Shown here piece after piece: positions 4,418 to 44,921 of a stretch of 64,000 nucleotides of DNA. A model generated the notes under the pieces. It was not told the origin of the DNA and ran no database searches. It saw nothing but the letters and a program-made list of their open reading frames with translations. How positions within the stretch are numbered: position 1 is the stretch's first letter; every line of letters starts with the position of its first letter. The DNA is from Dehalococcoidia bacterium. GTDB taxonomy: Bacteria; Chloroflexota; Dehalococcoidia; SZUA-161; SpSt-899. Made by a program: the position numbers and the translations under genes. The stretch spans positions 31,486 through 95,485 of the forward strand of contig JBLYPS010000003.1 of assembly GCA_048539495.1 (NCBI GenBank). The letters run 5' to 3'.

Positions 4418-4470
4418 GGCGGGGGACAAGCCCCCGCGCTGCGTAGCGCCGAGGTTTGTCCTCGGCAACC
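4418..4470. repeat. Double-hairpin REP-like element (family G) between convergent genes
   Basis: It contains the palindromes 'gggggacaagccccc' and 'gccgaggtttgtcctcggc'. An inverted copy is at 33235-33300. It may act as a bidirectional terminator. Confidence 0.5.
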
Positions 4471-18560: not shown

Positions 18561-18562
18561 AG

Positions 18563-19353: not shown

Positions 19354-19356
19354 ACC

Positions 19357-21483: not shown

Positions 21484-21611
21484 CCCTTAGCCTACCTGCA
21501 AAGATTATTGCACAATTCCTCCTGTTATTGCGAGCAAAGTGAAGCAAGATCATCAGGGGGATTCTCGCCCTGAAACCCCCTAAAGCGGTTGACGGTTCTG
21601 TTCGTTTGTGC

Positions 21612-21640
21612 TTGACATAGGGTTTCCCCTTCCTTATAAT
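21612..21640 (+). promoter_or_regulatory. Consensus sigma70 promoter (TTGACA-17-TATAAT)
   Basis: 'ttgaca' at 21612-21617 and 'tataat' at 21635-21640 are separated by a 17-nt spacer. The promoter sits upstream of the HNH gene start at 21667. Confidence 0.5.
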
Positions 21641-21666
21641 TACAGTAAATAGGTTGGGGGTGAAAG

Positions 21667-21906
21667 ATGGGACAATTTCCTGAGTCAGTTAAGGATGATG
21701 CTTTCAAACGAAGTCGTGGCCGATGCGAATGTTGGCGTAAAACTCATAAGTGGCATAAAGGTAGATGTAAAACTATTATTAAGCGTAATAAGAATATGCA
21801 TTACCATCATATTCGTTCCAAAGGCCCTGATACTCTTGCAAATTGTGAGGTCCTTTGTATTGAGTGTCATGAGAAAACTCGCTCCTATGGTCGCTCAGAA
21901 TTCTAA
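21667..21906 (+). CDS. HNH endonuclease-domain small protein
   Basis: The 'CECW...HKGRC...HYHHIRSKGPDTLANCEVLCIECH' pattern matches an HNH/zinc-finger nuclease motif. Confidence 0.6.
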   Translation: MGQFPESVKDDAFKRSRGRCECWRKTHKWHKGRCKTIIKRNKNMHYHHIRSKGPDTLANCEVLCIECHEKTRSYGRSEF

Positions 21907-21974
21907 AAACTAAACCCGTTTGACTGCTTTATGCCCTGGAGTCATAAAGGGGCTTCGCTTCCGTCAATCCTGGC

Positions 21975-24197: not shown

Positions 24198-27101
24198 TTA
24201 CTCCATTTCGCCCCAATTCTGGCCCAGTTTGGTCTCCACCTTAAGAGACACGCTAAGCTCCATTGCCGCTGACATGATCTCCTGTACTAGTCGTTTCATC
24301 AACTCGATCTCTGCCTGCGGCACCTCAAAAAGAAGCTCGTCATGCACCTGAAGGATCATCTTGCTCTTGAGACTCCTAATATCTATCTCGTTCTGGATGT
24401 TGATCATCGCCAGCTTTATGATGTCGGCAGCGGTGCCCTGGACCGGCATGTTTATGGCCATCCGCTCCGCCGCTTGCCGCACTTGATAATTGGAGGAATT
24501 AATCTCCGGGATATACCGCCTTCTTCCCATCACCGTTTGAACGTATCCTTTTTCAACCGCGTGCTGCTTGGTCAAGTTAACATAATCCCTGACGCCGCGG
24601 TATCTTTCGAAGTAGGCGTTAATAAAATCGGTCGCTTTCTGGCGGGAGAGCCCGGTGGCCTGTTCCAGGCCATAATCGCCCATACCGTAGATCACACCGA
24701 AATTCACCACCTTGGCTATTCGTCTCATCTCTGAGGTCACCTCGTATGTCTCCACGCCGAAGACCTGCGAGGCGGTGGCGGCATGGATATCCTCGTCGTG
24801 GGCGAAAGCGGCCAGGAGCCCGGGATCCTGCGATAGATGCGCCATAACGCGGAGCTCGATCTGGGAGTAATCCGCACTCAACAGCCAAGAGTCGAGAGTC
24901 GAGAGTCGAGAGTCGAGAGTCCCCCTCGCCCCCCGACTCCAGACTCCAGACTCCCGACTCCAGACTCCCTTTGGGGCGACGAAAGCCTGTCTGATCCGAT
25001 TTCCTATCTCAGTACGCACGGGGATATTCTGCAGATTGGGATCGCTCGATGATAAACGCCCGGTAGCGGTGACGGTCTGATTGAAATTGGTATGCACCCT
25101 TCCGGTCTCCGGATCGATGAGGGCTGGGAGGGCATCAACATAGGTTGATTTGAGCTTGGCGAGCTGGCGATACTCGATGATGTGCTCAATAGCGGGGTGC
25201 TCGCCCCGTAGCCCCTCCAGGACTGAGATATCCGTGGAGTAACCGCTCTTGGTCTTGCGCCCCGGGGTCAGCTTAAGCTCATCGAAAAGAATCCTCCCCA
25301 GTTGTTGGGTGGAGTTTATATTGAACTTATACCCCACCGACTCGTAAATCTCACCCTCGATCCTGGCCATCTCCATAAACATGACCTGCGACATATCCCG
25401 AAGCAAGCTAGTATCCAGAGCTATCCCATTCCTCTCCATCCGATATAAGACCGGAACCAGCGGCATCTCAACCTCGACGAAAAGATCCCACAACCCCTCT
25501 CTCTTCAGTTCTGCCTCCAGAAGTTGGCTTAGTCTACCCGTCATATCGGCATCGGCGCAGGCGTAATCGGCGGCTAGTGCAATGCTGACATCGGCCATAG
25601 AACCCTGTTTCGGTCCCGACCCGATGAGGGCGCTTATGGGGGTCATCTCAATGCCCAGTTTGCCGAAAGTGAGCTGCTTCAACCCTAGAGACTTCTCCCC
25701 CAGAAGATGCGCCGCGATCATGGTATCGAAGTTGATATGCTGCAATTCCAACCCGTGTTGCCAGAGAACGGTCATATCATACTTGGCATTGTGGGCTATC
25801 TTCGAAATAGCGGGGTCTATCATGATAGGCTTGAGTCTGGTAGTGATCTCGGATAGAGAGAGTTGACTAGTTGATAGTTGATAGTTGATAGTCGCTGGTC
25901 CCTCCCCACCCCAGACTGCCGACTGCTGACTGCTGACTGCCGACTGCCTGTGCCCGACGGGGATATACCAGGCCTTCGCCGGAGTCATCGAAAGAGAGAT
26001 GCCTACCAATGTCGTGTGTCTTGCCTCTTTGCCGGAGGTCTCCGTATCCACCACTAATGCCCCGGCTGTGGAGAGTTCCTCCACCAGTTCATTAAGGGCT
26101 TCGGAGGTAGCCACTATTTCATAAAAAGTCGAGAGTTCAGAAGGACGGGTATCTTGCCCGTCATCTCCAGTCAAGGGGAGGGGGACTCCAGACTCCAGAC
26201 TCCAAACTCCAGACTCGGATGTTGTCCCCGGCAGTTTGTCCAGGAGACTGAAGAACTCCAGCTCTCGAAACAGCGCGGTAACCGTGTCCCGCTTATAGCT
26301 GCTCACGCGGCAGGATGAGAGGTCGAGGCTTACCGGGACATCGGTGACGATGGTGGCTAACTTTTTGCTCTGTCGTGCCACTTCTTCATTGGACCGTAGG
26401 ATCTTTTGAATCCTGAGCGGGCTCACCTCGTCGATTCGTCGGTAGATTCCTTCCAGGCTGTCAAATTGCTGGATAAGCTTGACGGCGATCTTCTCTCCGA
26501 TACCGGCTACTCCAGGGATATTATCCGTCTGATCGCCTTTGAGGCCCTTCAGGTCGGCAAGCTGCTGTGGTCGGAGGCTGTATCGCTGCTGTACCGCTGC
26601 TTCATCGTAAAGTTGAGTGTCACTGAACGGGCGCCGGGGCCGGGGAAGAAGCACCTCGACACCGGGGGAGACAAGCTGCAGGGTATCGGTATCGCCGGTT
26701 ACGATGATAGAATAGATCCCCTGTGCGCTGGCCTGCTGGCTGAGAGCACCAAGAATATCGTCGGCCTCGTAGCCTTCCACCTCAAAGGCGAGGACGCCGA
26801 GGGCCTGGACCAGTTGGCGAACGACGGCGAATTGTGAGATGAGCTCGTCAGGCGCTTTGGGACGGTGCGCCTTATAATCCTGAAACTGAATATGCCTGAA
26901 GGTGGGAGCGGCGGTGTCGAAGGCGATTGCCCAGTGTGAGGGCTTAAACTCTTCGAGTGTCTTCAGGAGCATGCTTGCGAAGCCATAAACAGCCCCCGTT
27001 GGTTTTCCCTCCTTGGTCGAAAGTGCCGGCAGGGCATGGAAGGCGCGATGGATAAGGGCATGTCCGTCGAATAGGAGAAGCAGCGGTCTTTCTGTTGACA
27101 T
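24198..27101 (-). CDS. polA: DNA polymerase I
   Basis: A 5'-nuclease N-terminus, a 3'-5' exonuclease region and polymerase motifs ('DYSQIELR', 'QVHDEL') are present. At 967 aa it is enlarged by three in-frame repeat insertions. Confidence 0.9.
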   Translation of the reverse strand: MSTERPLLLLFDGHALIHRAFHALPALSTKEGKPTGAVYGFASMLLKTLEEFKPSHWAIAFDTAAPTFRHIQFQDYKAHRPKAPDELISQFAVVRQLVQALGVLAFEVEGYEADDILGALSQQASAQGIYSIIVTGDTDTLQLVSPGVEVLLPRPRRPFSDTQLYDEAAVQQRYSLRPQQLADLKGLKGDQTDNIPGVAGIGEKIAVKLIQQFDSLEGIYRRIDEVSPLRIQKILRSNEEVARQSKKLATIVTDVPVSLDLSSCRVSSYKRDTVTALFRELEFFSLLDKLPGTTSESGVWSLESGVPLPLTGDDGQDTRPSELSTFYEIVATSEALNELVEELSTAGALVVDTETSGKEARHTTLVGISLSMTPAKAWYIPVGHRQSAVSSQQSAVWGGEGPATINYQLSTSQLSLSEITTRLKPIMIDPAISKIAHNAKYDMTVLWQHGLELQHINFDTMIAAHLLGEKSLGLKQLTFGKLGIEMTPISALIGSGPKQGSMADVSIALAADYACADADMTGRLSQLLEAELKREGLWDLFVEVEMPLVPVLYRMERNGIALDTSLLRDMSQVMFMEMARIEGEIYESVGYKFNINSTQQLGRILFDELKLTPGRKTKSGYSTDISVLEGLRGEHPAIEHIIEYRQLAKLKSTYVDALPALIDPETGRVHTNFNQTVTATGRLSSSDPNLQNIPVRTEIGNRIRQAFVAPKGVWSRESGVWSRGARGTLDSRLSTLDSWLLSADYSQIELRVMAHLSQDPGLLAAFAHDEDIHAATASQVFGVETYEVTSEMRRIAKVVNFGVIYGMGDYGLEQATGLSRQKATDFINAYFERYRGVRDYVNLTKQHAVEKGYVQTVMGRRRYIPEINSSNYQVRQAAERMAINMPVQGTAADIIKLAMINIQNEIDIRSLKSKMILQVHDELLFEVPQAEIELMKRLVQEIMSAAMELSVSLKVETKLGQNWGEME
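24889..24970. repeat. In-frame heptamer-array palindromic insertion in polA (immediately before motif A)
   Basis: '(gagtcga)n' and 'ccccctcgcccccc' and '(gactcca)n' encode SRESGVWSRESGVWSRGARG just upstream of LLSADYSQIELR. Confidence 0.65.
25856..25950. repeat. In-frame tandem-heptamer insertion in the polA 3'-5' exonuclease region
   Basis: '(agttgat)n' and 'gctggtccctccccacccca' and '(gactgcc/gactgct)n' encode SAVSSQQSAVWGGEGPATINYQLSTSQLSL. Confidence 0.6.
26165..26217. repeat. In-frame repeat in the polA inter-domain linker
   Basis: 'ggggagggggactccagactccagactccaaactccagactc' encodes SGVWSLESGVPLPLTG. Confidence 0.55.
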
Positions 27102-28476: not shown

Positions 28477-28549
28477 GGGGATTGGGAAGTGTGAAATCAT
28501 CCTGTTTGAGAGGGGAGAGCACATTTCTTTTGCGAACTGTGTATTGCCC

Positions 28550-28750
28550 TAACCCGGACGAGCCGGAACCAACAAGGCATATTGTCGTTTAAATTCGAAA
28601 TTCGAAGCACGAAATACTAAACAAATCCCAAAGTTCAAATGTTCAAAACTGCCCCATATTTGGAATTTTCCTATTTGGATTTGTTTAGTGCTTAGAAATT
28701 AGGATTTAGGATTTTTCCATTTTGCGCAAGACTTTAGACTTAAGGGACTA
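28550..28750 (+). repeat. ~200-bp direct repeat, copy 1 (island boundary or noncoding element)
   Basis: It is about 93% identical to 44690-44889 in the same orientation. It contains the internal inverted repeat 'cgaagcacgaaatactaaacaaatcc' / 'ggatttgtttagtgcttag'. Confidence 0.7.
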
Positions 28751-29641: not shown

Positions 29642-30130
29642 ATGAAAACGACGAATTACTTCACAACCAGCGTCACGGTGCGTCGTCCTTATCTCAAGAT
29701 GAAATGGATCGAATATGTGCTCAATAGTCCTATCTGCACAGAGGTGCAAGCTAATGGACGTATTCGTCATTGGGCACTGATAGTAGAAACTGGTAAGTAC
29801 CTGCGAGTGGTTACAGAACCAGACGGAAAAACAATACATAATGCTTTTTTGATCGCCGTTTTAAGCCCTAAAAGAGGAGGAGGTAGGAAAAAGATGGTTT
29901 TTCAATACCACCCGGATACTGATATGCTTTACCTAAAACTTGTCGAGGGGGTAAGTACGGAGTCTGAAGAAGTTACGCCTGGCATTGTGCTTGACTTCGA
30001 CGAACACAATCGGGTTATCGGCATTGAGATTGAGGACGCCAGCAACTTTGTTGATTTATCTCGTTTAGAAGTCTTAGCCTTGCCTGTCGCTAACCTGATA
30101 CTCAGTGAGCGAGTGTCTGCAAAGGTGTAG
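29642..30130 (+). CDS. DUF4258-DUF2283 fusion protein (normally a two-gene toxin-antitoxin-like pair)
   Basis: The C-terminal half 'MVFQYHPDTDMLYLKLVEG...GIVLDFDEHNRVIGIEIEDAS' resembles DUF2283. The N-terminal half resembles DUF4258. No stop codon separates them. Confidence 0.45.
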   Translation: MKTTNYFTTSVTVRRPYLKMKWIEYVLNSPICTEVQANGRIRHWALIVETGKYLRVVTEPDGKTIHNAFLIAVLSPKRGGGRKKMVFQYHPDTDMLYLKLVEGVSTESEEVTPGIVLDFDEHNRVIGIEIEDASNFVDLSRLEVLALPVANLILSERVSAKV

Positions 30131-30382
30131 TATAGTCAGTATTATCAACAGCGGTGGCCTAACAAGCGATTGCAGCCGACCGCCCTCGGCCCGGGTAGGC
30201 GTGGCGTGTCTTGCCATCAATCCTTCTGGTTATTAGAGCGAGTCTTGCCAGAGTCGGCGGCGGCTGAACCGCGTGCCGTTAGGCTTTCTTCTACAGACAG
30301 GGATATGTCTGAAATAGTTCAGGTATATTCCCCAAAACGGCGGGATATGCGAACTTGGCTCCGATAGGAACGAGAGAAGTTA

Positions 30383-30469
30383 ATGAGTCAAAAAGCTTTC
30401 TTAGCAAGGCTCGTAGCAAAGTTGGAGCATTCTGGGATTCCCTATATGATTTCAGGGTCATTAGGCTGA
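30383..30469 (+). pseudogene. N-terminal remnant of a nucleotidyltransferase, paralogous to the 7236-7802 gene
   Basis: It encodes 'MSQKAFLARLVAKLEHSGIPYMISGSLG*', which parallels 'MSQQELLKKVIQALDQAGIQYMITGSIVSS' in the 7236-7802 gene. Confidence 0.4.
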
Positions 30470-30628
30470 GAAATTACAGCTTCCTGAATAAAGTGGAAGA
30501 ATCGTGACGGCAGATAACCCATGGTTCACGGCTCCGCTTCGCACCGCCCAACTCAGCTTTGCTGAGTTCGTGAACCCCGAAACCGTTAGACGACGTGCAC
30601 GGTTCCGCACTAAACAAAAAGGAGGGAT

Positions 30629-30949
30629 TTGTCAATGTCGTTAGTTAAAACCGGATACGAGCACGTCACCATTGATGAAGTTGGCGTGCCAATTATTACA
30701 GGCACTACGATGAAGGTGGTCGAACTTGTGATTGAGAGAACAGCATACGGCTGGAGTCCGGAAGAACTCCACTTCCAACACCCATATTTGACCTTGGGGC
30801 AAATCCATTCAGCCCTGGCATACTATTGGGACCATGTGGAGGAACTAGGGCAGGACATTGAACGTCGCCTGCACCACGTCGAACAGGTATGCCAAAAAGT
30901 CGGGCCCTCGCCGTTGGTGGCCCGACTGAAAGCCAAAGGATTGCTATAA
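30629..30949 (+). CDS. DUF433 protein (antitoxin-like)
   Basis: The 'VPIITGTTMKVVELVIERTAYGWSPEEL...LTLGQIHSALAYY' segment resembles DUF433. Its stop overlaps the partner gene's start as TAATG. Confidence 0.6.
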   Translation: MSMSLVKTGYEHVTIDEVGVPIITGTTMKVVELVIERTAYGWSPEELHFQHPYLTLGQIHSALAYYWDHVEELGQDIERRLHHVEQVCQKVGPSPLVARLKAKGLL

Positions 30950-31296
30950 TGGCGATTGCCTTTTATATGGACACCCATATTCCCAGGGTCATTACGATTG
31001 GGTTGCGCCTCCGTGGAGTTGAGGTCATCACAGCGCAAGAGGACAATGCAACCGATCTGTCTGATCCTGGGCTACTTGATCGGGCCACGGGTCTGCGACG
31101 GGTGCTGTTTACCTTTGACGACGACTTGTTGGCTGAGGCCACACGACGCCAATTAGAGGGTATTCCTTTTGCAGGTGTGATTTATGCTCATCCCTTACGC
31201 GTGTCAATTGGAACTTGTGTCAACGATCTAGAACTTATTGCTAGAGTGGGAGAACCTGAAGATCTAGCGAATCGAACGGAGTTCTTGCCGTTTTGA
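30949..31296 (+). CDS. DUF5615 protein (PIN-like toxin-like partner)
   Basis: The 'MAIAFYMDTHIPRVITIGLRLRGVEVITAQE' segment resembles DUF5615. It has a 1-nt overlap with the DUF433 gene. Confidence 0.55.
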   Translation: MAIAFYMDTHIPRVITIGLRLRGVEVITAQEDNATDLSDPGLLDRATGLRRVLFTFDDDLLAEATRRQLEGIPFAGVIYAHPLRVSIGTCVNDLELIARVGEPEDLANRTEFLPF

Positions 31297-31343: not shown

Positions 31344-32012
31344 ATGAAAAGGTCGCTAATGTACTTTAAAGCCGTAGTCTTCGATCTCGACGGAACGCTT
31401 CTTGACACGCTGGAAGATATTGCCCACTCCGCAAATACTGTGCTGGCAAGACGCGGCTTCCCCACACACAGCCTGGACGACTACCGTTATTTCGTGGGCG
31501 AAGGGGTGACTACGCTTATTACCCGCGTGCTGCCCGACGAGAAACGGAACGATGACACCATAGCGGAGTGCGTAAGGGCATTTCGGGAAGAGTATGGTCG
31601 TAACTGGAATGTGAAGACGACGCCATATGACGGTGTGCCGCAGATGCTCGATGAGCTGGCGTCGCGCCATCTAAAACTGGCAGTGCTCTCCAACAAGCCG
31701 GATGATTTCACCAAAAAATGTGTCACGGAACTCCTGCCAGACTGGACATTCGAGATAGTTTTGGGCCTCCACAGTGGAATTCCGCCCAAGCCGGACCCAA
31801 CAGGTGCCTCTCAGGTAGCTGAGTACTTGAGTGTCCCGCCGTCACGCATCCTCTACGTGGGGGATTCCGGCATAGATATGAAGACAGCCATCGCTGCCGG
31901 CATGTTCCCGCTAGGGGTACTCTGGGGATTCAGGTCACAAGAGGAGCTCCAGGATAACGGGGCGCAGGCACTGATCTCACGACCACAGGAGATTTTGGCT
32001 GTCTTGTATTAG
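31344..32012 (+). CDS. HAD-superfamily phosphatase (phosphoglycolate phosphatase-like)
   Basis: Motif I 'VVFDLDGTLLDT', 'LSNKP' and 'VGDSGIDMKTA' are present. The 5' 138 bp of this gene are duplicated at 34962-35100. Confidence 0.7.
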   Translation: MKRSLMYFKAVVFDLDGTLLDTLEDIAHSANTVLARRGFPTHSLDDYRYFVGEGVTTLITRVLPDEKRNDDTIAECVRAFREEYGRNWNVKTTPYDGVPQMLDELASRHLKLAVLSNKPDDFTKKCVTELLPDWTFEIVLGLHSGIPPKPDPTGASQVAEYLSVPPSRILYVGDSGIDMKTAIAAGMFPLGVLWGFRSQEELQDNGAQALISRPQEILAVLY

Positions 32013-33061
32013 CTATCAGCTTTCAGAAGGGGAGGGGGACCCCTGACTCTTGACTCTTGACTAAAAGACAGCAGGTCGCACTTGTTGCCCACCACCAGCA
32101 CCGCTCTGCTATCCAGGAGCTCGATGACCTCGAAATCGGCGGCATTAAGCGGTTCGCTGATATCAGTCACCAGCAGGACAAGCGCCGCCTGCTCAATGGC
32201 CTTACGGCTCCGCTCCACGCCCAGGGTCTCGATCACATCTTCGCTGTGAGTGATCCCCGCGGTGTCGATCAGAACGAAAGTCACTCCTTCTAAGTTCACT
32301 ACCTCTTCCAGAGTATCGCGGGTGGTGCCGGGGATGGGGATCACGATGGCCCGATTCTCCCGTAACAACCGATTCAACAAGCTCGACTTCCCCACATTCG
32401 GCCGTCCCACGATGGCCGTCCGCACGCCCTGACGATAGACGATACCGACATCGGCGCCGGCGATGAGTTCATCCAGCTCGAAGTGTGCTTTCTTGATTGG
32501 CTCCAGGGCATCCTGTTCCTCGACCTCGTCCTCGGGGAAATCAATTCTCGCAGTGAGGTAGGCCAGCACGGATAGTAAGTCGTTCCGTATCAACCTAATT
32601 TGCCCGGAGAGCCTTCCCCCCAATCCCTGCACCGCCAGGCGGAGGCTGGCCTGCGTCCTGGCCTGCACGATGTCCAGGACCGACTCCGCCTGCGAGAGGT
32701 CAATCCTGCCGTTCAGGAATGCCCTCAGCGTGAATTCGCCCGGCTCAGCCAGCCGGGCTCCGAGCTTAAGTGTAAGTCCCAGTATATGCTGCAGAGGCAC
32801 AATGCCACCGTGACAGTTGATCTCTACGATGTCCTCCCGGGTATAGGTGTGGGGAGCAGCCATATAGGCCACCAGCACCTCATCAACCACCTCGCAGGTT
32901 CCGGGATCGATTATGTGCCCGTAGCTCAGTCGGCGGTCCGAGAGCCTCTTATCAAAAAGTTTTGTCGCAATCGAGCAGGCGTCCTGCCCGCTGAGACGGA
33001 CGATCCTGATCCCGCCCTCGCCAATGGGGGTAGAGATAGCTGCGATGGTATCTTGATACAT
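32009..33061 (-). pseudogene. mnmE: tRNA modification GTPase MnmE, 3'-truncated
   Basis: The N-domain 'IAAISTPIGEGGIRIVRLSG', 'GEFTLRAFLNGRIDLSQAE', and G-domain motifs G1 to G4 ('GRPNVGKSS', 'DTAG', 'NKCDL') are present. The ORF ends in a repeat-derived tail 'SQESRVRGPPPLLKADS'. It lacks the C-terminal helical domain and the CxGK motif. The 3' end abuts the convergent HAD gene. Confidence 0.55.
32013..32065. repeat. G-rich core plus heptamer array at the mnmE truncation point
   Basis: The sequence is 'ttcagaaggggagggggacccctgactcttgactcttgactaaaag'. Confidence 0.5.
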
Positions 33062-33234
33062 AGCTATCTTACGAGTTTCGAGTTTTGGGTTTAGAGATCT
33101 CCCCCTCTCCCCGCCTCAACACTCAATATTCTATGCTCAACACTTACAGTATAGCTTTTCTAGCGATGGCAAACAAGAAGACGCTATTTGAGTTTCAAAA
33201 ATCGTCTTTTTGGGATAGAATATAAATAAGCGTT

Positions 33235-33300
33235 TGCCGAGGATAAACCTCGGCACTACGTTTTGCTGCGTAGCGCGGGGGCTTGTCCCCCGCCGGTGCC
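33235..33300. repeat. Double-hairpin REP-like element (family G), inverted copy
   Basis: It contains 'gccgaggataaacctcggc' and 'gcgggggcttgtcccccgc', matching the copy at 4418-4470. Confidence 0.5.
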
Positions 33301-33327
33301 CTTGCAGAGGGAATCGAGGTACTGACT

Positions 33328-33891
33328 TTGGATAGGAGATGTATCCTTATACTAGGGGGAGCGCGCAGCGGGAAGAGCCGCTTTGCCGAGAATCTGGCGG
33401 GCACTATCAGCGGCAAGGTTCTCTTCATTGCCACTGCCGAGGCCCTCGATGAGGAAATGAAGACACGGATCGCGGAACACCAGCGCCAGCGTCCAAGCTC
33501 CTGGCAGACTCTGGAGGCACCCACCGATGTGACCAAGGGAATTGCCGCGCGGATCGGCGATGCTGAGATCGTGCTCATCGATTGTCTCACTTTGCTGGTC
33601 TCGAATCTCATGCTGGGCGAAGAACGAGGGCTCTCGGAATCGGGCGGGCTCGACACCAAGGATGCCGAGAATCGCGTCGTGGCGGAAATAGAAACACTGG
33701 CTGAATTCATCCAAAAGACAAGTGCAACCTTCATCATCGTCTCCAACGAGGTCGGACTCGGCCTCGTGTCGGAGAACAGGCTGGGGCGGGTGTATTGTGA
33801 CCTTCTGGGAAGAGCCAACCAACTGATCGCCCGATATGCCAATGAAGTCTATTTCATGGTCGCCGGCATTCCAATGAAGGTGAAAGGATAA
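33328..33891 (+). CDS. cobU: Adenosylcobinamide kinase / adenosylcobinamide-phosphate guanylyltransferase
   Basis: A P-loop '[16 protein letters not shown]' is present. The start is probably the TTG at 33328, because the upstream part of the predicted ORF is occupied by the family G repeat. Confidence 0.7.
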
Positions 33892-33893
33892 CC

Positions 33894-34808
33894 ATGACCG
33901 CCAAAACGCTGATGATCCAGGGTACCGGCTCCTCGGTCGGCAAGAGCATCATTGTTACCGCCCTGTGTCGTATCATGCATCAGGATGGTTTCAACGCAGC
34001 ACCATTCAAGTCGCAAAACATGTCGCTGAACTCCTTTGTGACCCGAGACGGCCTGGAGATGGCACGAGCCCAGGCGGTGCAGGCTGAAGCCGCGGGCATT
34101 GAGCCGTGCGTGGATATGAATCCGGTGCTGCTCAAGCCCGAGGCCGATGCCCGGTCACAGGTGGTGGTTATGGGGAAGCCATGGATGACCATCAGCGCCC
34201 GTGACTACTACCGGCACACGCCCGATCTTTTTCCCATAATCGAAGGGTCCCTGGATCGACTGCGTTCCCGGTACGACATCGTAATAATCGAAGGTGCCGG
34301 GAGCCCGGCGGAGATAAACCTCCGCCGCTTCGAGATGGTGAATATGAGCATCGCCAGGCTGGCTCAGTCACCGGTTCTGCTCGTGGGAGACATTGATAAA
34401 GGCGGGGTTTTCGCCTCCCTCGTAGGAACCATCGTCCTCCTCCAGGACGAGGAAAGGGAGAGAATCAAGGGTTTCATCATCAATAAATTCCGTGGTGATG
34501 TCTCCATTCTCCAACCGGGGCTCGATTACCTGGAGGACCACACCGGCATTGCGGTTCTCGGCGTGGTGCCCTACTATCACAACATCATGATCGATGAAGA
34601 GGACTCCATACATCAACCCTACCTCCACGGGCTCTTCGACAACGAACGCTTTCGACGTGGCTTGCTGCACAATATAAAGCCTGACTGCCCGCTCGAAATG
34701 AAAAGCGAGATGCCTTTCAGAGAGGAGCAATATGATAAACTCGCCATGATCGTGCGGCAGAGTCTTGATATGGAGCGTATCTACACTTTACTATCTCACT
34801 CTCTCTAG
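33894..34808 (+). pseudogene. cobQ: Cobyric acid synthase CobQ/CbiP, N-terminal ATPase half only
   Basis: The CobQ N-domain '[11 protein letters not shown]' and the '[16 protein letters not shown]' junction are present. The ORF stops before the glutamine amidotransferase domain. It is followed by a duplicated fragment of the HAD gene. Confidence 0.5.
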
Positions 34809-34961
34809 CCTGTGATGTAGCAGCGTCATTGCCTTTGATTCAAGCAAACCTAACACTAGGGGTGCTAGTAAGCCGCGGCATGGGACGAGAGATAATTTGT
34901 CCAATCCTTTTCGCTACTGGGTTAATCTATATGCCAAGAAGTTGTGCTTGGCATTACCAGG

Positions 34962-35100
34962 GATCGCTAATGTACTTTAAAGTCGTAGTCTTCGATCTCG
35001 ACGGAACGCTTCTTGACACGCTGGAAGATATTGCCAACTCCGTAAATACTGTCCTGGCAAGACGCGGCTTCCCCACACACAGCCTGGACGACTACCGCTC
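34962..35100 (+). repeat. Segmental duplicate of the 5' end of the HAD phosphatase gene
   Basis: It is about 95% identical to 31352-31490 and encodes 'MYFKVVVFDLDGTLLDTLEDIANSVNTVLARRGFPTHSLDDYR'. It is then interrupted by the family F repeat. Confidence 0.7.
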
Positions 35101-35103
35101 CAA

Positions 35104-35157
35104 AGGGTAGGGGCAAATTTATTCGCCCTGTCGGGGGAGGCTTTAGCCTCCCCTACC
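35104..35157. repeat. Nested-hairpin REP-like element (family F)
   Basis: 'gggtagggg' and 'gggcaaatttattcgccc' and 'gggaggctttagcctccc' and 'ctaccc' form the nested structure. An inverted copy is at 36604-36658. Confidence 0.55.
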
Positions 35158-35794
35158 TGTTTTCGCTGACTGCTGACCGCTGCAGATGGCAGGTGTCATT
35201 CAGCACGATGAACGCCGCTCCATAGGGTGAGGTCTCCATGATGGTGACCGAGGCGCTGCCGAGGCGCACCTGCCACCAGTGCTCCAGGCCAATTCCCAGC
35301 AGCAGGCAGATAAGCACTTGCAGCGAGCCCCCGTGAGCCACCACTAACACCGTTTCCTCGGGTTCATATCCCTTCAGCTCCTCGGCGAACTGGGCCACCC
35401 TGGCGCCAAGTTGAGCTATGCTCTCACCGTTAGGGAGACGAATTTCCGGACTTCTGGTTCGCCAGGCTTGAAGATCGCCGGCGATCCGGGGGTAGTTCTC
35501 CTTGATCTCGTCGAAGGTCATTCCTTCAGCCTGGCCGAAGTCCATCTCCCTCAATAACGCTGTTTGACGGATCTCCGCCATGCCGTGCATCGAGGCGATG
35601 CTCCGAGCAGTTTCACACGCCCGGGAGAGGTCGCTGGAGTAGATAACATCTATCCTCTCACCGGCAAGTCGATCCCTCACCCTTGCCGCCTGTTCGATCC
35701 CATTGTCGTTCAAGTGGATATCGCTGTGGCCCTGATACCGAAACGACTTGTTCCACTCCGTCTCGCCGTGCCTTACAAGTATAAGCCTAGCCAA
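35153..35794 (-). CDS. cobC: Alpha-ribazole phosphatase (histidine phosphatase family)
   Basis: The 'LVRHGETEWN' RHG motif is present. The gene is adjacent to cobS and cobT. Confidence 0.75.
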   Translation of the reverse strand: MARLILVRHGETEWNKSFRYQGHSDIHLNDNGIEQAARVRDRLAGERIDVIYSSDLSRACETARSIASMHGMAEIRQTALLREMDFGQAEGMTFDEIKENYPRIAGDLQAWRTRSPEIRLPNGESIAQLGARVAQFAEELKGYEPEETVLVVAHGGSLQVLICLLLGIGLEHWWQVRLGSASVTIMETSPYGAAFIVLNDTCHLQRSAVSENR

Positions 35795-36567
35795 CTTGTT
35801 CCTCCTAGTTTACCGATTATGATGATCAGAATCAGCGTCGCTACCTCGGAAAGCTCGATTATAGCACCATAGGTATCGCCCGTAAGTCCGCCGAGGCGTG
35901 AGCTGAGAGTTCTCGCCAGCAGAAAGCTGGTAACCCAAACCACAACCACCATCGCTACCCCGGCGTAACTCAGAAAAGCCGCTGCTGCAGCTACGGCGAT
36001 CACCGTTGCCATGCCCATCTTCAGCCAGCTCGCCTGCTTCTTGAACACCTGGCCCAGTCCCTCCTTCTTAGCGGAGGGGAAGGCAGTGATAGCGTAGGTA
36101 GCACTCCATCTACTCAGGGTAGGCATCAGCAGGAGCGCTGCCGCTCTCAACCCCACCGGCATGGTTATCAGCGAGATAACTTTAAGCAGGATGAGGCAGC
36201 ATGCCCCCACCACCCCGAACCCCCCCACCCGGCTATCGGCCATCACCCTGAGCCTTTCGGCCGCGGAGCTCCTCAAGGCAAACCCATCGCAGGTGTCCAT
36301 CAATCCATCGAGATGGAGCGCACCAGTGAAGAGAATAAGCGAAACGACCAGTAAGGCGCTCACGAGCAGCGGAGGCAGGAAGAGTCCCAGTAGCTGGTCG
36401 AGCCCCAACAGGATCGCCCCCAATATAAGCCCCACCAGCGAGAAGTAGCTTATCGAGCGGCCAATCCCGCTCTCACTGAAGCCTCGGCCTCCTGGGGCAG
36501 GGAATACGGTGAGAAACTGCCAGGCAGTCCAGAAACCCAAATCGTCTCCTCTCCGTTCAAGGTTCAA
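35773..36567 (-). CDS. cobS: Adenosylcobinamide-GDP ribazoletransferase (cobalamin synthase)
   Basis: The 264-aa polytopic membrane protein has a CobS-like profile 'LLVSLILFTGALHLDGLMDTCDG'. Confidence 0.8.
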   Translation of the reverse strand: MNLERRGDDLGFWTAWQFLTVFPAPGGRGFSESGIGRSISYFSLVGLILGAILLGLDQLLGLFLPPLLVSALLVVSLILFTGALHLDGLMDTCDGFALRSSAAERLRVMADSRVGGFGVVGACCLILLKVISLITMPVGLRAAALLLMPTLSRWSATYAITAFPSAKKEGLGQVFKKQASWLKMGMATVIAVAAAAAFLSYAGVAMVVVVWVTSFLLARTLSSRLGGLTGDTYGAIIELSEVATLILIIIIGKLGGTSWLGLYL

Positions 36568-36603
36568 GGTTCAAAGTTGCGGCTTGTTCCGAGCGCGGGC
36601 TCT

Positions 36604-36658
36604 AGGGTAGGGGCGAATAAATTCGCCCTGTGGCGGGAGGCTAAAGCCTCCCCTACCC
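36604..36658. repeat. Nested-hairpin REP-like element (family F), inverted copy
   Basis: The sequence is 'gggtaggggcgaataaattcgccctgtggcgggaggctaaagcctcccctaccc'. It lies between cobT and cobS. Confidence 0.55.
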
Positions 36659-37720
36659 AACCTCTTCCGATTCGGAGACCCCGGCCTCCTCAAAGGTGGC
36701 CATCTCGTCCAGGACCTTCGTTGCAGCCTCAGCAATGCTTATTGCTAAGGCTGCCCCAGTGCCTTCCCCAAGGCGCATCCTGAGGTTGAGCAGCGCGGTG
36801 AGCCCCAGGTGCTCCAGTGCCACCCGGTGCCCGGCTTCCACCGATAGATGGGCGGCGATGAAATATTCTCTGGCAGTCGGCGAGAGCCCCGCAGCGATGA
36901 GCGCCGCTGCCCCGGAGATGAAACCATCAATGACCACCGGGATGCGGTTTGCTGCTGCTCCCAGCATAACGCCGGCGAGCCCGCCGATTTCAAATCCCCC
37001 TACCCTGGCCAGCACATCGAGGGGATCATCAGGATTGGGTTGGTTCACCTGGAGCGCTTTTTCAATTACCGCCACTTTGTGGGTCAGTTGCTCATCCCGC
37101 AGACCGGTACCGCGGCCGGTGACCTCGACCACCGGCTTGCCGGTCATCACGGCACAGACGGCACTTGATGCGGTGGTGTTGCCAATCCCCATATCGCCGG
37201 TGCCCACTATATCCAATCCTTTGGCGATCTCCGACTCAAGCACCTCGATCCCCGCCTCAATGGCATCCAGCGCCTGCTGCCGGCTCATAGCCGGTTCGCG
37301 GGCGATGTTTTTGGTGCCGAAATCAATCATCTTACAGAGAAGCCCGGAATGGGGTTCGCATCCACCGATAACGCCCATATCCACCACCACAACCCTTGCC
37401 CCCACATGGCGGGCGAGGACATTGATACCCGCCCCTCCTCCCAGAAAGTTGAGCACCATCTGCCCGGTTACCTCCTGGGGATAGAGGCTTATCCCCTCGG
37501 CTGCCACGCCGTGATCAGCAGCCATAGTGATGATGGCCTTGTGCCGAATCTTCGGCCGGGGATTCCCCGTTATCCCGGCGATAAGGATGGCAAGGTCTTC
37601 AAGCTGTCCCAGGCTGCCCTGAGGCTTGGTGAGTGTATCCTGGCGCCTTCTGGCGGTCTCCATTGCCTCCAAATTCAGAGGCTTTATTGCCCCAAGTGTT
37701 TCGGTTAGGGATTTGGTCAT
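36653..37720 (-). CDS. cobT: Nicotinate-nucleotide--dimethylbenzimidazole phosphoribosyltransferase
   Basis: 'GDMGIGNTT', 'GGGAGINV' and the overall CobT fold are present in a 355-aa product. Confidence 0.85.
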   Translation of the reverse strand: MTKSLTETLGAIKPLNLEAMETARRRQDTLTKPQGSLGQLEDLAILIAGITGNPRPKIRHKAIITMAADHGVAAEGISLYPQEVTGQMVLNFLGGGAGINVLARHVGARVVVVDMGVIGGCEPHSGLLCKMIDFGTKNIAREPAMSRQQALDAIEAGIEVLESEIAKGLDIVGTGDMGIGNTTASSAVCAVMTGKPVVEVTGRGTGLRDEQLTHKVAVIEKALQVNQPNPDDPLDVLARVGGFEIGGLAGVMLGAAANRIPVVIDGFISGAAALIAAGLSPTAREYFIAAHLSVEAGHRVALEHLGLTALLNLRMRLGEGTGAALAISIAEAATKVLDEMATFEEAGVSESEEVG

Positions 37721-37882: not shown

Positions 37883-37971
<89 letters not shown>

Positions 37972-38022
37972 CATGTATCCTGCTCGGCAATTGTATCCAG
38001 GGATATACTCAGCCGCTCGAAA

Positions 38023-38108
38023 GCGGAGGGGGTGGGATTCGAACCCACGGTCACCAGAGATGACACCGCTTTTCGAGAGCGGCACCTTAAGCCACTCGGT
38101 CACCCCTC
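38023..38108 (-). tRNA. tRNA-Ser (anticodon CGA)
   Basis: The reverse complement reads GGAGGGGTGACCGAGTGGCTTAAGGTGCCGCTCTCGAAAAGCGGTGTCATCTCTGGTGACCGTGGGTTCGAATCCCACCCCCTCCG. It has a CCGCT/AGCGG anticodon stem with the loop CTCGAAA, a long variable arm, and no encoded CCA. Confidence 0.85.
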
Positions 38109-38813
38109 CGGGCCTGTTCTTGAAGCTAAATTAGCGATTGTAAGCACTTACCCCATTAGACATAACAAGGTTTTGCTGATAATTTGCTAATAATGATTTT
38201 GAACGGCTTCTTTTTCACACCTGCCATTAAGCAGTTTATCAAAACTCTGGGCTGCCTCCTCTTGAAGTCCAGGAGCAACGTGGGAGTAGGTGTCGAAGGT
38301 TATCTGAATAACTGGCATAGCCTAACCGATCCTGGACTATCTTGGGGTGTACTCCCTACTTCAGCATTAGTGAGACGCGGGTGCGGATTTCGCTCAAAGC
38401 CACCCGGTTCGCCAAACCGGCCACCTTCTCGGTCGAAACCGGCCACCTGCCCTAGAAGTAGCCGGGGGTCGGAGCGACACTAGGCTTATTTCAGTTTAGC
38501 TCAAGTTGGTGTCAATTGCAAATCCCTCCTTTCGCTCGTTTTTCTGATTTGCCACCGGGGTGGGGGGGGTGAGGGAAAAGCGTCAGATTGACATTGCGAT
38601 GGCTGCGTAGCTCATTATGAGGATTCTAGGGCTTTCTTGTTGCCCAGCTCTACTCCAGCTCCTCTCCGAGTCCTCTTCGACTAATTGGGCTCCATCTAGA
38701 AGTGGCCGATTTGCTCCGTGAAGGTGGCCGATTAACTCCGAAAAACGCACGCTGCACGCACACTCGGACGAACCGGAACCAGATTTTCATTCTCCACATT
38801 AGCTTTAGTAGAA

Positions 38814-40097
38814 TCAAGGGCTTCTTCTCGGGTCATTTCCACTTCCGCCAGTACTAGCTGGTTTCAACAACGAGGTCAATATAATAGTTATGACACTGAT
38901 TGTTGCACAGATTAAGAAAGCTAGTTGATAGCTACCAGTCATATCAAATATACTACCAGCCACGACCGGACCAATAGCTCCCCCAATTGCAAAGCCAAAC
39001 GCAAGAATCCCCATGATTGCACCGAGTGAACTTAGTCCAAATAACTCAGCGGTTACTGGTGACTCTAGCGCTGCTATACCACCATAGGCAAACCCAAAGA
39101 TAAGGGCAAACAGATACAACATCCACACCTCTCTGGCTGCTAACAGCCACAATAAAGCAACTGATATCAGAATAAAGTTAATAATAAGAGCTGACTTATT
39201 ACCAATTCGATCACCACCGCTACCCATTGTAATCCTCCCGGCTATACTTAGCCCACCAATAATAGGTAGAATATTGGCAGCACCGGTGGCTGAAATTCCA
39301 AGCTCAGTGGCGTGGGGGACAATATGCACCATGATAATATTTAAGAATATACCGAAACAGAACATCATAGCAAAAAACATCCAGAATTGGCTCATATGAA
39401 CTGCTTCCTTAAGAGAAAACCCCCTAGCCTGTAAACCTAAACCTTTCTCCTCTAACCCATTCTCACCATATGGCAACCGCGCCATCTGACCGGGGTCACG
39501 CTTTAAAAACTGCGCTACCGGTACAAGCAATACTAAAGTTATGATACCTACAATAATATAAGAGGTTCTCCAGCCATAGCTAGCGATGAGCCAACTAGTT
39601 ATCGGGGGTATAGTCATTATGCCTACACCTATGCCAGCTACAACAATACCGGTCATTATTCCCCTTCTCTTGGCAAACCACCTAGCTACTGTAGATACCA
39701 GCGGGACGAATCCGCCACTCATCCCAATACCCATCATCACCCCATAGAACAGATATAGCTGCCAAATAGCACCAATCTGAGACATCAATAGATGGCCCAA
39801 TCCTAAAATGAAGCCACAAGCTGTCACAACAATCTTCGGACCAAACCTATCACTTAATCTCCCGGTGATAATGCTCAGAAAACCGAATAAGAGCAAACAC
39901 AATGAGAAGGCACCTGATGTGATTGCTCTAGTCCAGCCAAACTCTGCTGACAACGGCTTAAAAAAGATACCAAAGCTATAAAATGTGCCGAACATTACCA
40001 CCAAGATAAGGAAGGTAACCCCAACCACAATATAACCATAGAACAACTTAGGTTTTCTATGTCCAGCTAAGTGAAAATCACCTGTCTCCTTAATCAA
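38814..40097 (-). CDS. MFS transporter (oxalate/formate antiporter-like)
   Basis: The product has 12 predicted transmembrane segments and the 'GRLSDRFGPK' loop motif. Confidence 0.8.
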   Translation of the reverse strand: MIKETGDFHLAGHRKPKLFYGYIVVGVTFLILVVMFGTFYSFGIFFKPLSAEFGWTRAITSGAFSLCLLLFGFLSIITGRLSDRFGPKIVVTACGFILGLGHLLMSQIGAIWQLYLFYGVMMGIGMSGGFVPLVSTVARWFAKRRGIMTGIVVAGIGVGIMTIPPITSWLIASYGWRTSYIIVGIITLVLLVPVAQFLKRDPGQMARLPYGENGLEEKGLGLQARGFSLKEAVHMSQFWMFFAMMFCFGIFLNIIMVHIVPHATELGISATGAANILPIIGGLSIAGRITMGSGGDRIGNKSALIINFILISVALLWLLAAREVWMLYLFALIFGFAYGGIAALESPVTAELFGLSSLGAIMGILAFGFAIGGAIGPVVAGSIFDMTGSYQLAFLICATISVITIILTSLLKPASTGGSGNDPRRSP

Positions 40098-40253
40098 AAT
40101 AACAAAACCCCCTTCAAACTACCCATACATAGCGCGGCCTCCTGCCGCAACCAAAATATTCGCGGTGGGCATAGTTTTTTCAGAGTAATATGCGCTAAAT
40201 CTGACCTAGCCGACTTGTCTCACAGCAACAAAGACTCCCGCTTCGACTTGTCA

Positions 40254-41093
40254 TCAAGATTTAGTCTCTTCCAAAGACATGCAGGGAGCTACAAGCTTGT
40301 TAAGCATACCTTGTAACTCGTCGAGCACCTCCTCAAGAGGCAGCAATGATTCAACTTGCTGCTTCAAATCCTTTTCCCAGTAGCTCTTCAGTACCCCTGG
40401 GTCTCCCGGAAGAAAATCGCTCATAGATCGGAGGCAAAGGCCCTTATGTGCAAGCTTCTCGGCCAGCACTGCCCCCAGAAGCTCGAAGTTAAGCTGGGAA
40501 GAGTGCTCCCTTAATACTCTCCATACGTCGTAATAATCTCTGGATTTACCGCGTTCAAGCAAGCTTCGCATCTTCTCAGCAAGCAACTCTTCCAGTGGGT
40601 AGACCAGTACCTCTCGTTGCTGATCAGTAAAGGGGTCAGTTAACACTCTCCGATATTCAGGCTCAAGGCATAATGGTTCGTCAAAGCTCAAGTCCATATA
40701 AATCATACCCGGGTAGGACAAGGGGCCCAGGAACTGACTTCGGATGCGAGCATAACCATCTGTCTTATGAAGCATCTTAGTCGTAAGCTGTATCTGGGAC
40801 TCCTGTTCTACCTGGCGATACCATCCGTCAAGAGATTGCCTTAGCTCTTCTTTAGCCATGTCATGTCTCACCGTAAAGTCCAGGTCTTCCGAGTAACGCC
40901 AGTGCGAGAAATAGACTTTACGTAGGGCAGTACCTCCCTTGAATACCATCACCTCATTCAGCACTGGCACCTGTGATAGAGTTTTAAGCACCTCTGTAAG
41001 CACGTAGTCTTTTTCCAATATGCCTAAAGCTACTTTTTCGTGTTGGGCCATCCTCTGCAATTCGGCCTTGGATAACACTACTGCTCCTTCCAC
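40254..41093 (-). CDS. abiEii: AbiEii-family nucleotidyltransferase toxin (type IV toxin-antitoxin)
   Basis: The 'VFKGGTALRKVYFSHWRYSEDLDF' nucleotidyltransferase motif (DUF1814) is present. Confidence 0.75.
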   Translation of the reverse strand: MEGAVVLSKAELQRMAQHEKVALGILEKDYVLTEVLKTLSQVPVLNEVMVFKGGTALRKVYFSHWRYSEDLDFTVRHDMAKEELRQSLDGWYRQVEQESQIQLTTKMLHKTDGYARIRSQFLGPLSYPGMIYMDLSFDEPLCLEPEYRRVLTDPFTDQQREVLVYPLEELLAEKMRSLLERGKSRDYYDVWRVLREHSSQLNFELLGAVLAEKLAHKGLCLRSMSDFLPGDPGVLKSYWEKDLKQQVESLLPLEEVLDELQGMLNKLVAPCMSLEETKS

Positions 41094-41899
41094 TGTAAGA
41101 GTTCATTCTCCGAAACATTTACGATGATTTTCCATCGGTCAAGATATCTACCCTCGGTATTTGCCAGGGTATCAAGCGGGGCATATCCACTACTCATGCC
41201 ATCACGGAGAATGACAATAGCCTCATCTCTATCGGGGCTTAGCGTCTCCAGAAGGTAGCCTAACCGCTGGCTTACAGCTCTGTTTCCGCTCTTCCGTGCA
41301 TACTCAGCCAATTTCACAAAATCAAGCTCGTCGCGCCCATACCACAGTGCCTTAGCTACTTCTGCTACGCCGCCACAGTACCGTAATCGGTCAAGGCAAT
41401 CTACTATTGTTTTTTCAGGTTCGGAGATGTTAACCCCATGTTTATCCAAAATCACTTCGGTTTCTCCAAAGAATTTATGCTCAGACATATACACAAAGCG
41501 GTATGTTACTCCGGAAATCTCCAGAGCTGGCTTTGACTTGCGACGAGTTGAAGCTATGAAGACAGTCCGACTAACTTGTTCCGTATAGCCATAGTAATTG
41601 AGGGCACTGCGGAATCCAATATAGTAGGGGTTGATAAGATAGGAGGCAATTATGAATTCATGTTCAGTCCACTCACCTTCGCGTCCGGCTTCAAAGGGTA
41701 ATATGAGATATTTACCCCGCTCCATGCGTTGAAGCCAGCGTCGCTTAACCAGTCTGGATAACAGTCCGTGCAGTCCACTATTGCTAGTACCGTAGATTTT
41801 AGCAGCATCATCGAAGGTGAAAAGGCGCTTACCTTGACGGGTCAGCTCTGTCAAGAGATTGCTCCCTGTATCGCCAAGAGTTCTTATGTTTTGTGCCAT
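41078..41899 (-). CDS. abiEi: AbiEi-family antitoxin/transcriptional regulator
   Basis: The N-terminal wHTH region '...RLVKRRWLQRMERGKYLI' is typical of AbiEi. It overlaps abiEii by 16 nt. The start is probably MAQNIRTLG. Confidence 0.65.
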   Translation of the reverse strand: MAQNIRTLGDTGSNLLTELTRQGKRLFTFDDAAKIYGTSNSGLHGLLSRLVKRRWLQRMERGKYLILPFEAGREGEWTEHEFIIASYLINPYYIGFRSALNYYGYTEQVSRTVFIASTRRKSKPALEISGVTYRFVYMSEHKFFGETEVILDKHGVNISEPEKTIVDCLDRLRYCGGVAEVAKALWYGRDELDFVKLAEYARKSGNRAVSQRLGYLLETLSPDRDEAIVILRDGMSSGYAPLDTLANTEGRYLDRWKIIVNVSENELLQWKEQ

Positions 41900-42164
41900 A
41901 ATAGTTACCTCCGCCGTCATTATTATAGCACAAAACATCAACCATCATGGATGCTAAATGGGAGAAAGCTTAAACTAGCCCCTTGTCAGGGTGAACAATC
42001 CGTCATTTTGTTACCCCACCGAGTGCATTTGCTGCCTTGCAAGCCAAACGCTTTGATGCTAGAATCATTTTTGATAGTGACAGTTGCGTTAGATAGTTAG
42101 ACTAGAGGCCATTTTAAAAGTTCTACCTATTATAACCCCAACTCCAGAGGGAAGGAAGTTAAGC

Positions 42165-44621: not shown

Positions 44622-44689
44622 CCTATCTTTATTTATATACTAATTCGTTATATGGTTCAAGCTAAACATCTGTGAGGCTTTATTTACGC

Positions 44690-44889
44690 CAACCCAGACA
44701 AGCCGGAACCAACAAGGCATATTGTCGTTTAAATTCGAAATCCGAAGCACGAAATACTAAACAAATCCCAAATCCCAATGTTCAAATGTTCAAAACTGCC
44801 TCATATTTGGAATTTTGCTATTTGGATTTGTTTAGTGCTTAGAAATTAGGATTTAGGATTTTCCATTTTACGCAAGACTTTAGATTTAA
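44690..44889 (+). repeat. ~200-bp direct repeat, copy 2
   Basis: It matches 28550-28750. It lies between the mutL 3' end and the Lon-like gene's 5' end, and it may carry that gene's promoter. Confidence 0.7.
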
Positions 44890-44921
44890 GGGACTAACCT
44901 GTCTTGTTCTATTCCCGAACT

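Follow-up and report, generated by a model that had tools for sequence, protein, structure and literature searches.

The helical domain of MnmE (TrmE/ThdF) is formed by residues 120-215 and 377-454, and the C-terminal swivel helix bears the FC(V/I/L)GK motif, whose cysteine plays a crucial part in the reaction; the C-terminal K454 is close enough to the MnmG-bound FAD to interact with it, and the second helical half, the swivel helix and the motif cysteine are all required for tRNA modification (PMC12397908). In-frame insertion of repeats into coding sequence is known from the Rickettsia palindromic elements (RPEs), which are frequently found in this position within metabolic genes (PMC10969869). 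Both subjects meet in a locus (locus A, 31.3-35.2 kb) of a 64,000-nt stretch of Dehalococcoidia DNA, to which we refer as the window and whose numbering is used throughout. Within 4 kb three different genes have each suffered a lesion of a separate type: mnmE, cobQ and a gene of a HAD-family phosphatase. Very probably the damaged genes (mnmE', cobQ' and HAD') are decaying extra copies left over from a duplication. Judged by the sequences, tRNA modification and cobalamin function appear not to have been lost. The locus is a fresh instance of a known phenomenon, duplication remnants homogenised by gene conversion.

The locus resembles other duplication-remnant pseudogenes in that it consists of partial copies with intact paralogues elsewhere, in that the losses are complementary among three loci (A, B and C, see below), and in that it is mainly the duplicated genes that hold the donor-identical tracts. 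It differs from them in having three types of lesion within 4 kb (a break at an element, a domain-precise deletion and an internal deletion) and in that all the remnants are still open reading frames (ORFs) passing annotation cut-offs.

Damaged genes and the ancestral arrangement

The features of the locus and of the adjoining cobalamin genes are as follows.

31359..32012, + strand: HAD-family phosphatase, 217 aa (Pfam HAD_2 matched over 1-174 of 178; a longer ORF starts at 31344)
32009..33061, - strand: mnmE', 350 aa, truncated paralogue (Pfam, NCBIfam, comparison with relatives)
32013..32065, no strand: half of a heptamer-armed palindromic element at the mnmE'/HAD junction (comparison with the full-length paralogue)
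32564..33007, - strand: polymorphic tracts clustered within mnmE' (17 of the 39 sites varying among four strains)
33328..33891, + strand: cobU, 187 aa, intact (Pfam CobU matched over 1-168 of 168; mechanical ORF from 33283)
33894..34808, + strand: cobQ', 304 aa, with an in-frame deletion of 597 bp (Pfam, NCBIfam, alignments)
34212..34298, + strand: conversion tract within cobQ' (19 strain-variable sites in 87 bp)
34955..35097, + strand: HAD' relic, second copy of the HAD gene (97% identical to 31353-31486)
35104..35157, no strand: double-hairpin element between HAD' and the 3' end of cobC (family F of the preliminary description)
35153-35794, - strand: cobC (Pfam His_Phos_1, full length)
35773-36567, - strand: cobS (Pfam CobS, full length)
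36653-37720, - strand: cobT (Pfam DBI_PRT, full length)
37884..38109, - strand: two tRNA-Ser genes with GGA and CGA anticodons, flanking the cluster (Rfam)

In two relatives (84-88% nucleotide identity) cobU is followed on the same strand by cobQ (500 aa, with a GATase_3 domain), and mnmE (445 aa), followed by a response regulator gene, diverges from cobU. The window holds the same divergent pair with both outer ends damaged. By this comparison the view of the preliminary description, that the locus is rearranged, was correct, and all four features that it had reported were found at or near the positions given there.

The ORF of mnmE' ends 20 codons past the G4 motif (NKCD), and the protein terminates in '...GNKCDLLSFSQESRVRGPPPLLKADS*'. 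Like MnmE, the product has the N-terminal folate-binding/dimerisation domain, the first helical segment and G1-G4; unlike MnmE, it is devoid of G5, of the second helical half (helices 6-8) and of the FC(V/I/L)GK motif, so that the C-terminal swivel helix, the motif cysteine and the C-terminal lysine are all missing. In Pfam searches TrmE_N was matched over its full length (1-117 of 117, E 8e-42) and MMR_HSR1 was complete, whereas MnmE_helical was matched only over 1-97 of 211. The NCBIfam model TIGR00450 matched only over 2-332 of 446, with a score (342 bits) above its cut-off of 252.6. Thus the part expected to bind 5,10-CH2-THF (5,10-methylenetetrahydrofolate) and to dimerise is present, and the complete G domain within a complete helical domain that characterizes functional MnmE is not. 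The FC(V/I/L)GK motif is present in the paralogue P0130 and in the proteins P0004 and P0005 of relatives. The closest full-length relatives (n=119) are 444-483 aa long, mostly 445; one more match, P0094 (406 aa), comes from a 1.5-kb contig. With relatives of 445 aa, MnmE of this lineage does not naturally end after the G domain. The last ~115 codons have been lost from mnmE', and tblastn revealed no trace of the missing 3' part in the 64-kb window.

The preliminary description placed the end of the mnmE ORF in a repeat-derived tail, and the tail past NKCDL is indeed encoded by the half-element at 32013-32065. This segment consists of a G-rich core, AAGGGGAGGGGGAC, and (GACTCTT)n, resembles 26173-26202 in core and arm, and provides the final 20 codons and the stop codon of mnmE', which overlaps the convergent HAD stop by 4 nt. 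The full-length copy of mnmE carries a 26-aa insert after NKCDL (SFSQESRGASRESRGGEGDSRLPDSRLQTPLRS), followed by LPWPIV...FCIGK. The insert is encoded by the palindrome (GAGTCNA)n - GGGGAGGGGG - (GACTCCA)n. On the mnmE side the first 22 nt of the element are identical in mnmE' and in the in-frame element of the full-length paralogue; past this point mnmE' runs into the inverted core and reaches the HAD stop codon 14 nt further on. Folding of the half-element is no stronger than that of shuffled sequence (z 0.3 and -0.9), as expected of a broken palindrome. In one comparison the element was missing from mnmE of the relatives L004 and L005 and was present in the L003/L006 copies.

The shared start of the element in both copies suggests that the element is older than the duplication, and the break lies within a heptamer array. 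Since the same element occupies the same codon, in frame, in the intact paralogue, recombination within heptamer arrays is a reasonable explanation of the break. The element would have been inserted in frame after G4 before mnmE broke; the break itself, most likely by recombination between the heptamer arrays of two elements, would have joined the 5' 1 kb of mnmE with sequence lying downstream of a HAD gene.

The lesion of cobQ' is of a different kind. Alignment with L004 and L005 revealed an exact in-frame deletion of 597 bp (199 codons, junction at ~34615-34618) that removes GATase_3 entirely and with it the GICGGFQMLG nucleophile segment; the final 62 codons and the native stop are retained. 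Therefore the earlier statement that only the N-terminal ATPase half is kept was right about the loss of the amidotransferase and wrong about a 3' truncation, the deletion being internal and the C-terminal tail preserved. The junction shows ~2 nt of microhomology and no repeat, and a simple deletion would account for it. Of the reported coincidence of breakpoints with repeats, the end of mnmE' and the HAD piece are true examples and the cobQ deletion is not.

Pfam detected CbiA/AAA_26 and no GATase_3 in cobQ'. The product is 90% identical to its paralogue over residues 1-241 and qualifies as a synthetase domain (CbiA/DTBS-like); as a glutamine amidotransferase (GATase_3 with a nucleophile Cys) it does not. 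In having the synthetase domain and the C-terminal tail, and in following cobU in an operon as in the relatives, cobQ' is like CobQ/CbiP, and it is unlike CobQ/CbiP in lacking the entire GATase_3 domain. No cobQ GATase domain was found by tblastn in the window. In spite of the deletion the score (417) exceeds the NCBIfam equivalog cut-off of 273.

The 2-nt spacer before cobQ' is preceded by an intact cobU, which scored 201 against the cut-off of 161 for NCBIfam NF004469 and shares 86.7% identity with the genome's second cobU. The cobC-cobS-cobT genes (35153..37720, - strand) are also intact and converge on cobU-cobQ'. Judged by full-length family matches only, cobU, cobC, cobS and cobT would make up a working set for nucleotide-loop assembly in the window. 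A search for a cobalamin riboswitch upstream of cobU gave no Rfam match at the gathering threshold in 28-40 kb other than the two tRNA-Ser genes. Two strong hairpins were noted in the mnmE'-cobU spacer (33235-33294), where 33265-33294 is the reverse complement of 4418-4447.

The third damaged gene is represented by a short piece. The segments 31353-31486 and 34964-35097 are 97% identical over 134 nt (4 mismatches, blastn E ~3e-60) and extend from 6 nt before the ATG (31359 and 34970, respectively) to codon 43. A duplication of the HAD 5' end had been reported as 138 bp at about 95% identity; its existence was confirmed and these values are amended accordingly. The relic begins 15 nt before the ATG (at 34955), and its residual ORF (34970-35110) has 46 codons' worth of protein (46 aa). 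Of the four motifs and the cap domain expected of a HAD phosphatase, its 43 homologous codons contain motif I (DLDGT) only.

Both flanks of the relic, ACCAG.G.TCGCTAATG on the 5' side and TCCAAAG.GTAGGGGC.AATTTATTCGCC on the 3' side, agree with the sequences on either side of a complete HAD gene in L097, a related population with 93% identity. The complete gene of L097 has the 5' flank of the relic (ACCAGAGGTCGCTAATG) and is directly followed by the same hairpin context (TCCAAAGAGTAGGGGCGAATTTATTCGCC). This indicated that HAD' is a second HAD copy minus codons 44 to the end, probably hit by an internal deletion, and not, as had been thought, a 5' end pasted in by duplication. Campbell-type integration was considered as a source of the duplicate and was rejected in view of the same match of both flanks.

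The intact HAD gene is represented by one identical protein per metagenome-assembled genome (MAG), including MFW0858909.1. Its scores with the NCBIfam phosphoglycolate-phosphatase models were below the cut-offs, and it is therefore regarded as a generic HAD-IA protein. The neighbours that it has in the window (cob genes, mnmE, DUF433, DUF5615) were undetected near HAD in 76 of 80 metagenomic HAD loci; the linkage of HAD to cob genes is lineage-specific and is not a general feature of more distant relatives.

Intact copies and gene conversion

A full-length MnmE (P0130, 471 aa), 95% identical to the mnmE' product and ending in ...SRFCIGK, is encoded at a second locus (locus B) beside ham1-moaA-moaC-panC-surE. 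In GCA_018725405.1, the MAG that holds the truncated locus on QLUM01000117, locus B was found on QLUM01000075. The nucleotide identity between mnmE' and the full-length copy in L006 is 96.2% over the first 1025 nt of the latter. Accessions of full and truncated MnmE occur as pairs in three MAGs (MBT9160210/MBT9159897, MBT9149172/MBT9149431 and MBT9161592/MBT9162650). Between surE and mnmE of locus B, at the ancestral position of cobU, lies a 77-nt relic of cobU. In its C-terminal part the full-length mnmE has a ratio of non-synonymous to synonymous substitution rates (dN/dS) of 0.25 relative to L004 and has kept FCIGK; this copy is under constraint.

A search with the CobQ of the relatives led to locus C, where a 503-aa CobQ with GATase_3 (P0160) follows a second cobU on QLUM01000168 of the same MAG, GCA_018725405.1. 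The 503-aa protein is also present as MFW0859471.1 on a 62-kb contig. The genes of the window correspond to MFW0858907-MFW0858915 on a 101-kb contig, and the MFW series most likely represents the genome from which the window comes. There is no protein accession between CobU (MFW0858911) and CobC (MFW0858912); presumably cobQ' is annotated as a pseudogene in this series. An intact paralogue in the same genome was thus found for mnmE in GCA_018725405.1, for cobQ in that MAG and in the MFW series, and for HAD in the window itself. The neighbours of cobU-cobQ at locus C (L092:4448-5335, L093) are an NYN-domain gene and a DDE transposase gene (MFW0859473.1). The pair is nearer to the cobU-cobQ of the relatives (92%) than to the window copy (87%); the two copies may stem from an old duplication or from transfer.

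The four strains for which locus A is available differ at 39 sites over 16.7 kb, and 36 of these fall in mnmE' (17) and cobQ' (19). In the cobQ' tract at 34212-34298 the alleles of L001 are identical to the full cobQ of locus C (L093, from the same MAG as L001) at 19 of 19 sites. L007 matches the full cobQ over 34212-34259, a tract differing in length from that of L001. In mnmE, variants at codons 55 (T55/I55), 92 (H92/R92) and 157 (L157/S157) are common to truncated and full copies in varied combinations, as are the alleles at nucleotide sites 210-264. Comparison of the mnmE copies of the window and of L006 showed identity over sites 265-580 and ~8% difference over 581-952. Such clustered, donor-identical tracts indicate gene conversion between the paralogues, which in turn supports the presence of both copies in the same genome.

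These observations can be accommodated in the following order of events, which we infer from the present arrangements. The ancestral segment with cobQ and cobU diverging from mnmE, and a HAD gene, would have been duplicated (or acquired), after which the redundant copies decayed. Locus A would have kept a working cobU next to cobT-cobS-cobC while its mnmE and cobQ were damaged, locus B the complete mnmE with cobU reduced to the 77-nt relic, and locus C a complete cobU-cobQ. The damaged copies would be dispensable. They still convert with the intact paralogues; conversion keeps parts of them healthy-looking and yields nearly all strain-level variation in the region.

Several points weigh against this explanation. 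In the MFW series the surE locus lies on a 56-kb contig, and no accession was found for full mnmE, DUF2442 or DUF4160; an intact mnmE in the exact genome of the window is deduced from sibling MAGs and from conversion tracts. MAGs can be contaminated, and the BBPD-G records are bulk metagenome assemblies, in which co-occurrence is no proof. In the unconverted 3' part, 7 non-synonymous and 5 synonymous changes were counted for mnmE', compared with 4 and 10, respectively, for the full copy; this trend fits relaxed constraint, and the branch test for relaxed selection was not significant (Fisher p = 0.23). In what is left of cobQ', dN/dS is 0.13-0.14 relative to both the paralogue and the relatives. 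Finally, both damaged genes are still ORFs, which leaves room for residual function.

It is unlikely that the copies belong to two closely related populations binned together, each genome having one version. Identities of 96% (mnmE) and 87% (cobU-cobQ) could also separate sister species, and the contigs concerned are short in most assemblies besides coming in part from the bulk BBPD-G data. However, the flanking single-copy genes tested (panC, surE, moaA, moaC, ham1, cobT, cobC, HAD and MFS) were each present in one version per MAG, counted within 90% clusters, which argues against two co-binned populations. The pairing of copies recurs in three MAGs, and for cobQ also in the MFW genome. The flanks of loci B and C are unrelated to those of locus A, so the loci are not allelic versions, and the donor-identical tracts and shared polymorphisms need physical co-residence or very frequent exchange.

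Genuine loss, by which the organism would have no working MnmE and/or CobQ as a result of reductive evolution of wobble modification and corrinoid amidation, is quite improbable as well. Both genes of locus A are without indispensable parts, the missing pieces are absent from the 64-kb window, and an annotated full-length MnmE was not found in the MFW series. When the 471-aa MnmE was compared with the genome collection, conserved motifs swamped the query; the best of the matches listed was 70% identical, and neither this species nor its genome was among them. A query with the 142 C-terminal residues returned only short proteins of <=80% identity and missed even the parent protein, so that it has no bearing on a split gene or on the MFW genome. 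But a mnmE with all motifs occurs in the same MAG as the truncated copy, with accession pairs in three MAGs, and the full-length cobQ is annotated in the MFW series. In addition, the mnmE' tract of the window at sites 210-264 is of the full-copy type and is absent from the closest sibling strains, which points to a recent donor in the same lineage. Several assemblies break beside the full mnmE copy (L088-L090), because it forms a 1-kb repeat, and this would account for the missing annotation. With intact copies of both genes elsewhere (471-aa MnmE, 503-aa CobQ, same MAG), the evidence on the question raised in the preliminary description, whether mnmE and cobQ are functional, moved elsewhere or genuinely lost, points away from loss, and a notable loss of MnmE-dependent modification or of CobQ is unsupported.

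The shortened proteins might have been kept for a function, CobQ' as an ammonia- or partner-dependent synthetase and MnmE' as a GTPase with a regulatory or dimer-poisoning role or as a store of sequence on which the intact gene can draw. The uninterrupted ORFs, the exactly in-frame and domain-precise deletion in cobQ', its translational coupling to the intact cobU, its low dN/dS and the equivalog-level NCBIfam scores of both genes would all fit. The synonymous divergence of cobQ' (dS), however, is ~0.5, and the strains sharing the deletion are <0.5% apart; the low dN/dS therefore reflects mostly the history before the deletion and is no sign of present function, and conversion from intact copies mimics constraint. 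CobQ' has lost the catalytic Cys of the GATase and MnmE' the FCIGK motif, the 120 best homologues included no other CobQ of ~300 aa with such an architecture, and mnmE' has acquired its own changes, including G19R and T241I (beside the PGTTRD segment), at positions invariant in the other copies compared. A retained function is therefore very unlikely.

Junctions at repeats and a 134-nt duplicate are typical sites of misassembly, but false truncations created by chimeric joins can be dismissed with near certainty, since four independently made assemblies, 9-28 substitutions apart, are colinear without gaps over all junctions (QLUM01000117, 99.56% identical; BBPF01000142, 99.88%; QLUL01000006, 99.85% over 16.7 kb) and a fifth record, L096, shows 100% identity over the junction of HAD and mnmE'.

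Decay of duplicated copies thus stands as the probable explanation of the locus, with consequences for annotation. Public records list both damaged genes under functional names, MnmE and cobyric acid synthase, because their scores exceed the curated NCBIfam equivalog cut-offs. Tables of gene presence for the lineage can consequently mislead in both directions: a dead copy may be counted as functional, or a loss may be read from the one contig examined. The locus illustrates how duplicated copies decay in a complementary manner, how nearly all strain-level variation over 17 kb can come from gene conversion, and how a short repeat within coding sequence can turn into a rearrangement breakpoint. 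It is no demonstration of lost wobble-uridine modification or corrinoid amidation.

Heptamer-armed palindromic elements

The element in mnmE belongs to a large group of repeats. When the whole window was analysed with the tandem repeat program TRF, ~38 of 60 rows had a period of 7. These repeats fall into several unrelated families (GACTCCA, GGGTAAT/CCTATAA, CCTTCAG, GGTTCAA and GGTGATT), and the heptamer arrays usually form inverted pairs with a G/C-rich core in the middle; most lie between genes.

Elements inserted in frame were also observed. The DNA polymerase I gene (24198-27101, - strand) contains arrays at 24888-24968, 25861-25948 and 26184-26216, one of the three sites being just before the DYSQIELR motif, and the lysyl-tRNA synthetase gene (21975-23492, - strand) contains an in-frame element at 23294-23361. 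In L006, Ham1, MoaA, PanC and the intact mnmE carry in-frame elements (580-672, 1591-1672, 3749-3815 and 6660-6742). A translated frame that recurs in the elements is SQESR..ESRGG..DSRLQTP. As a palindromic family of many copies found in frame in unrelated genes, the elements are RPE-like.

The likeness to RPEs is that the elements lie in frame, and are translated, within housekeeping genes, the intact mnmE among them. In contrast to RPEs, which are conserved and ~150 bp long, the elements here have arms of tandem heptamers, variable in number, around a G/C-rich core; the host is apparently a free-living Dehalococcoidia lineage. A literature search yielded no paper on the assemblies or on heptamer palindromes in Dehalococcoidia. 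Tentatively, the mnmE break may be one visible result of a lineage-wide family of elements that colonises essential genes in frame and acts as recombination breakpoints, with the truncated copies persisting as active conversion partners rather than as inert debris; we consider this possible, at somewhat less than an even chance. The occurrence of in-frame heptamer palindromes in essential genes is of more interest than the gene damage itself.

The double hairpin at 35104-35157 has a second copy at 36604-36657 (87% identical). Predicted folding energies are -28.8 kcal/mol (z -2.6) for the former and -34.1 kcal/mol (z -3.2) for the latter. The element is terminator-like on the + strand, with a terminator-like match at 35133-35154. 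The last ~8 codons and the stop codon of cobC (35153-35185) are encoded by a heptamer array, CGCTGAC x2.7. Members of the CobC cluster have 205 or 213 aa, from which the element seems to have lengthened the end of cobC.

Other features of the region

Many small genes resembling toxin-antitoxin genes (DUF2283, DUF433, DUF5615/PIN-like, AbiEi/AbiEii) are found at 29642-31296 and at L007:169-1814, and in L097 the cassette upstream of HAD is swapped for another gene pair. This suggests fast turnover of the region beside the two tRNA-Ser genes. The G+C content is 0.40 at 16000-22000 and 0.47 at 38000-46000, compared with ~0.54 elsewhere in the window; these two blocks may be acquired islands. A repeat of ~200 nt has copies at 28544-28750 and 44684-44896.

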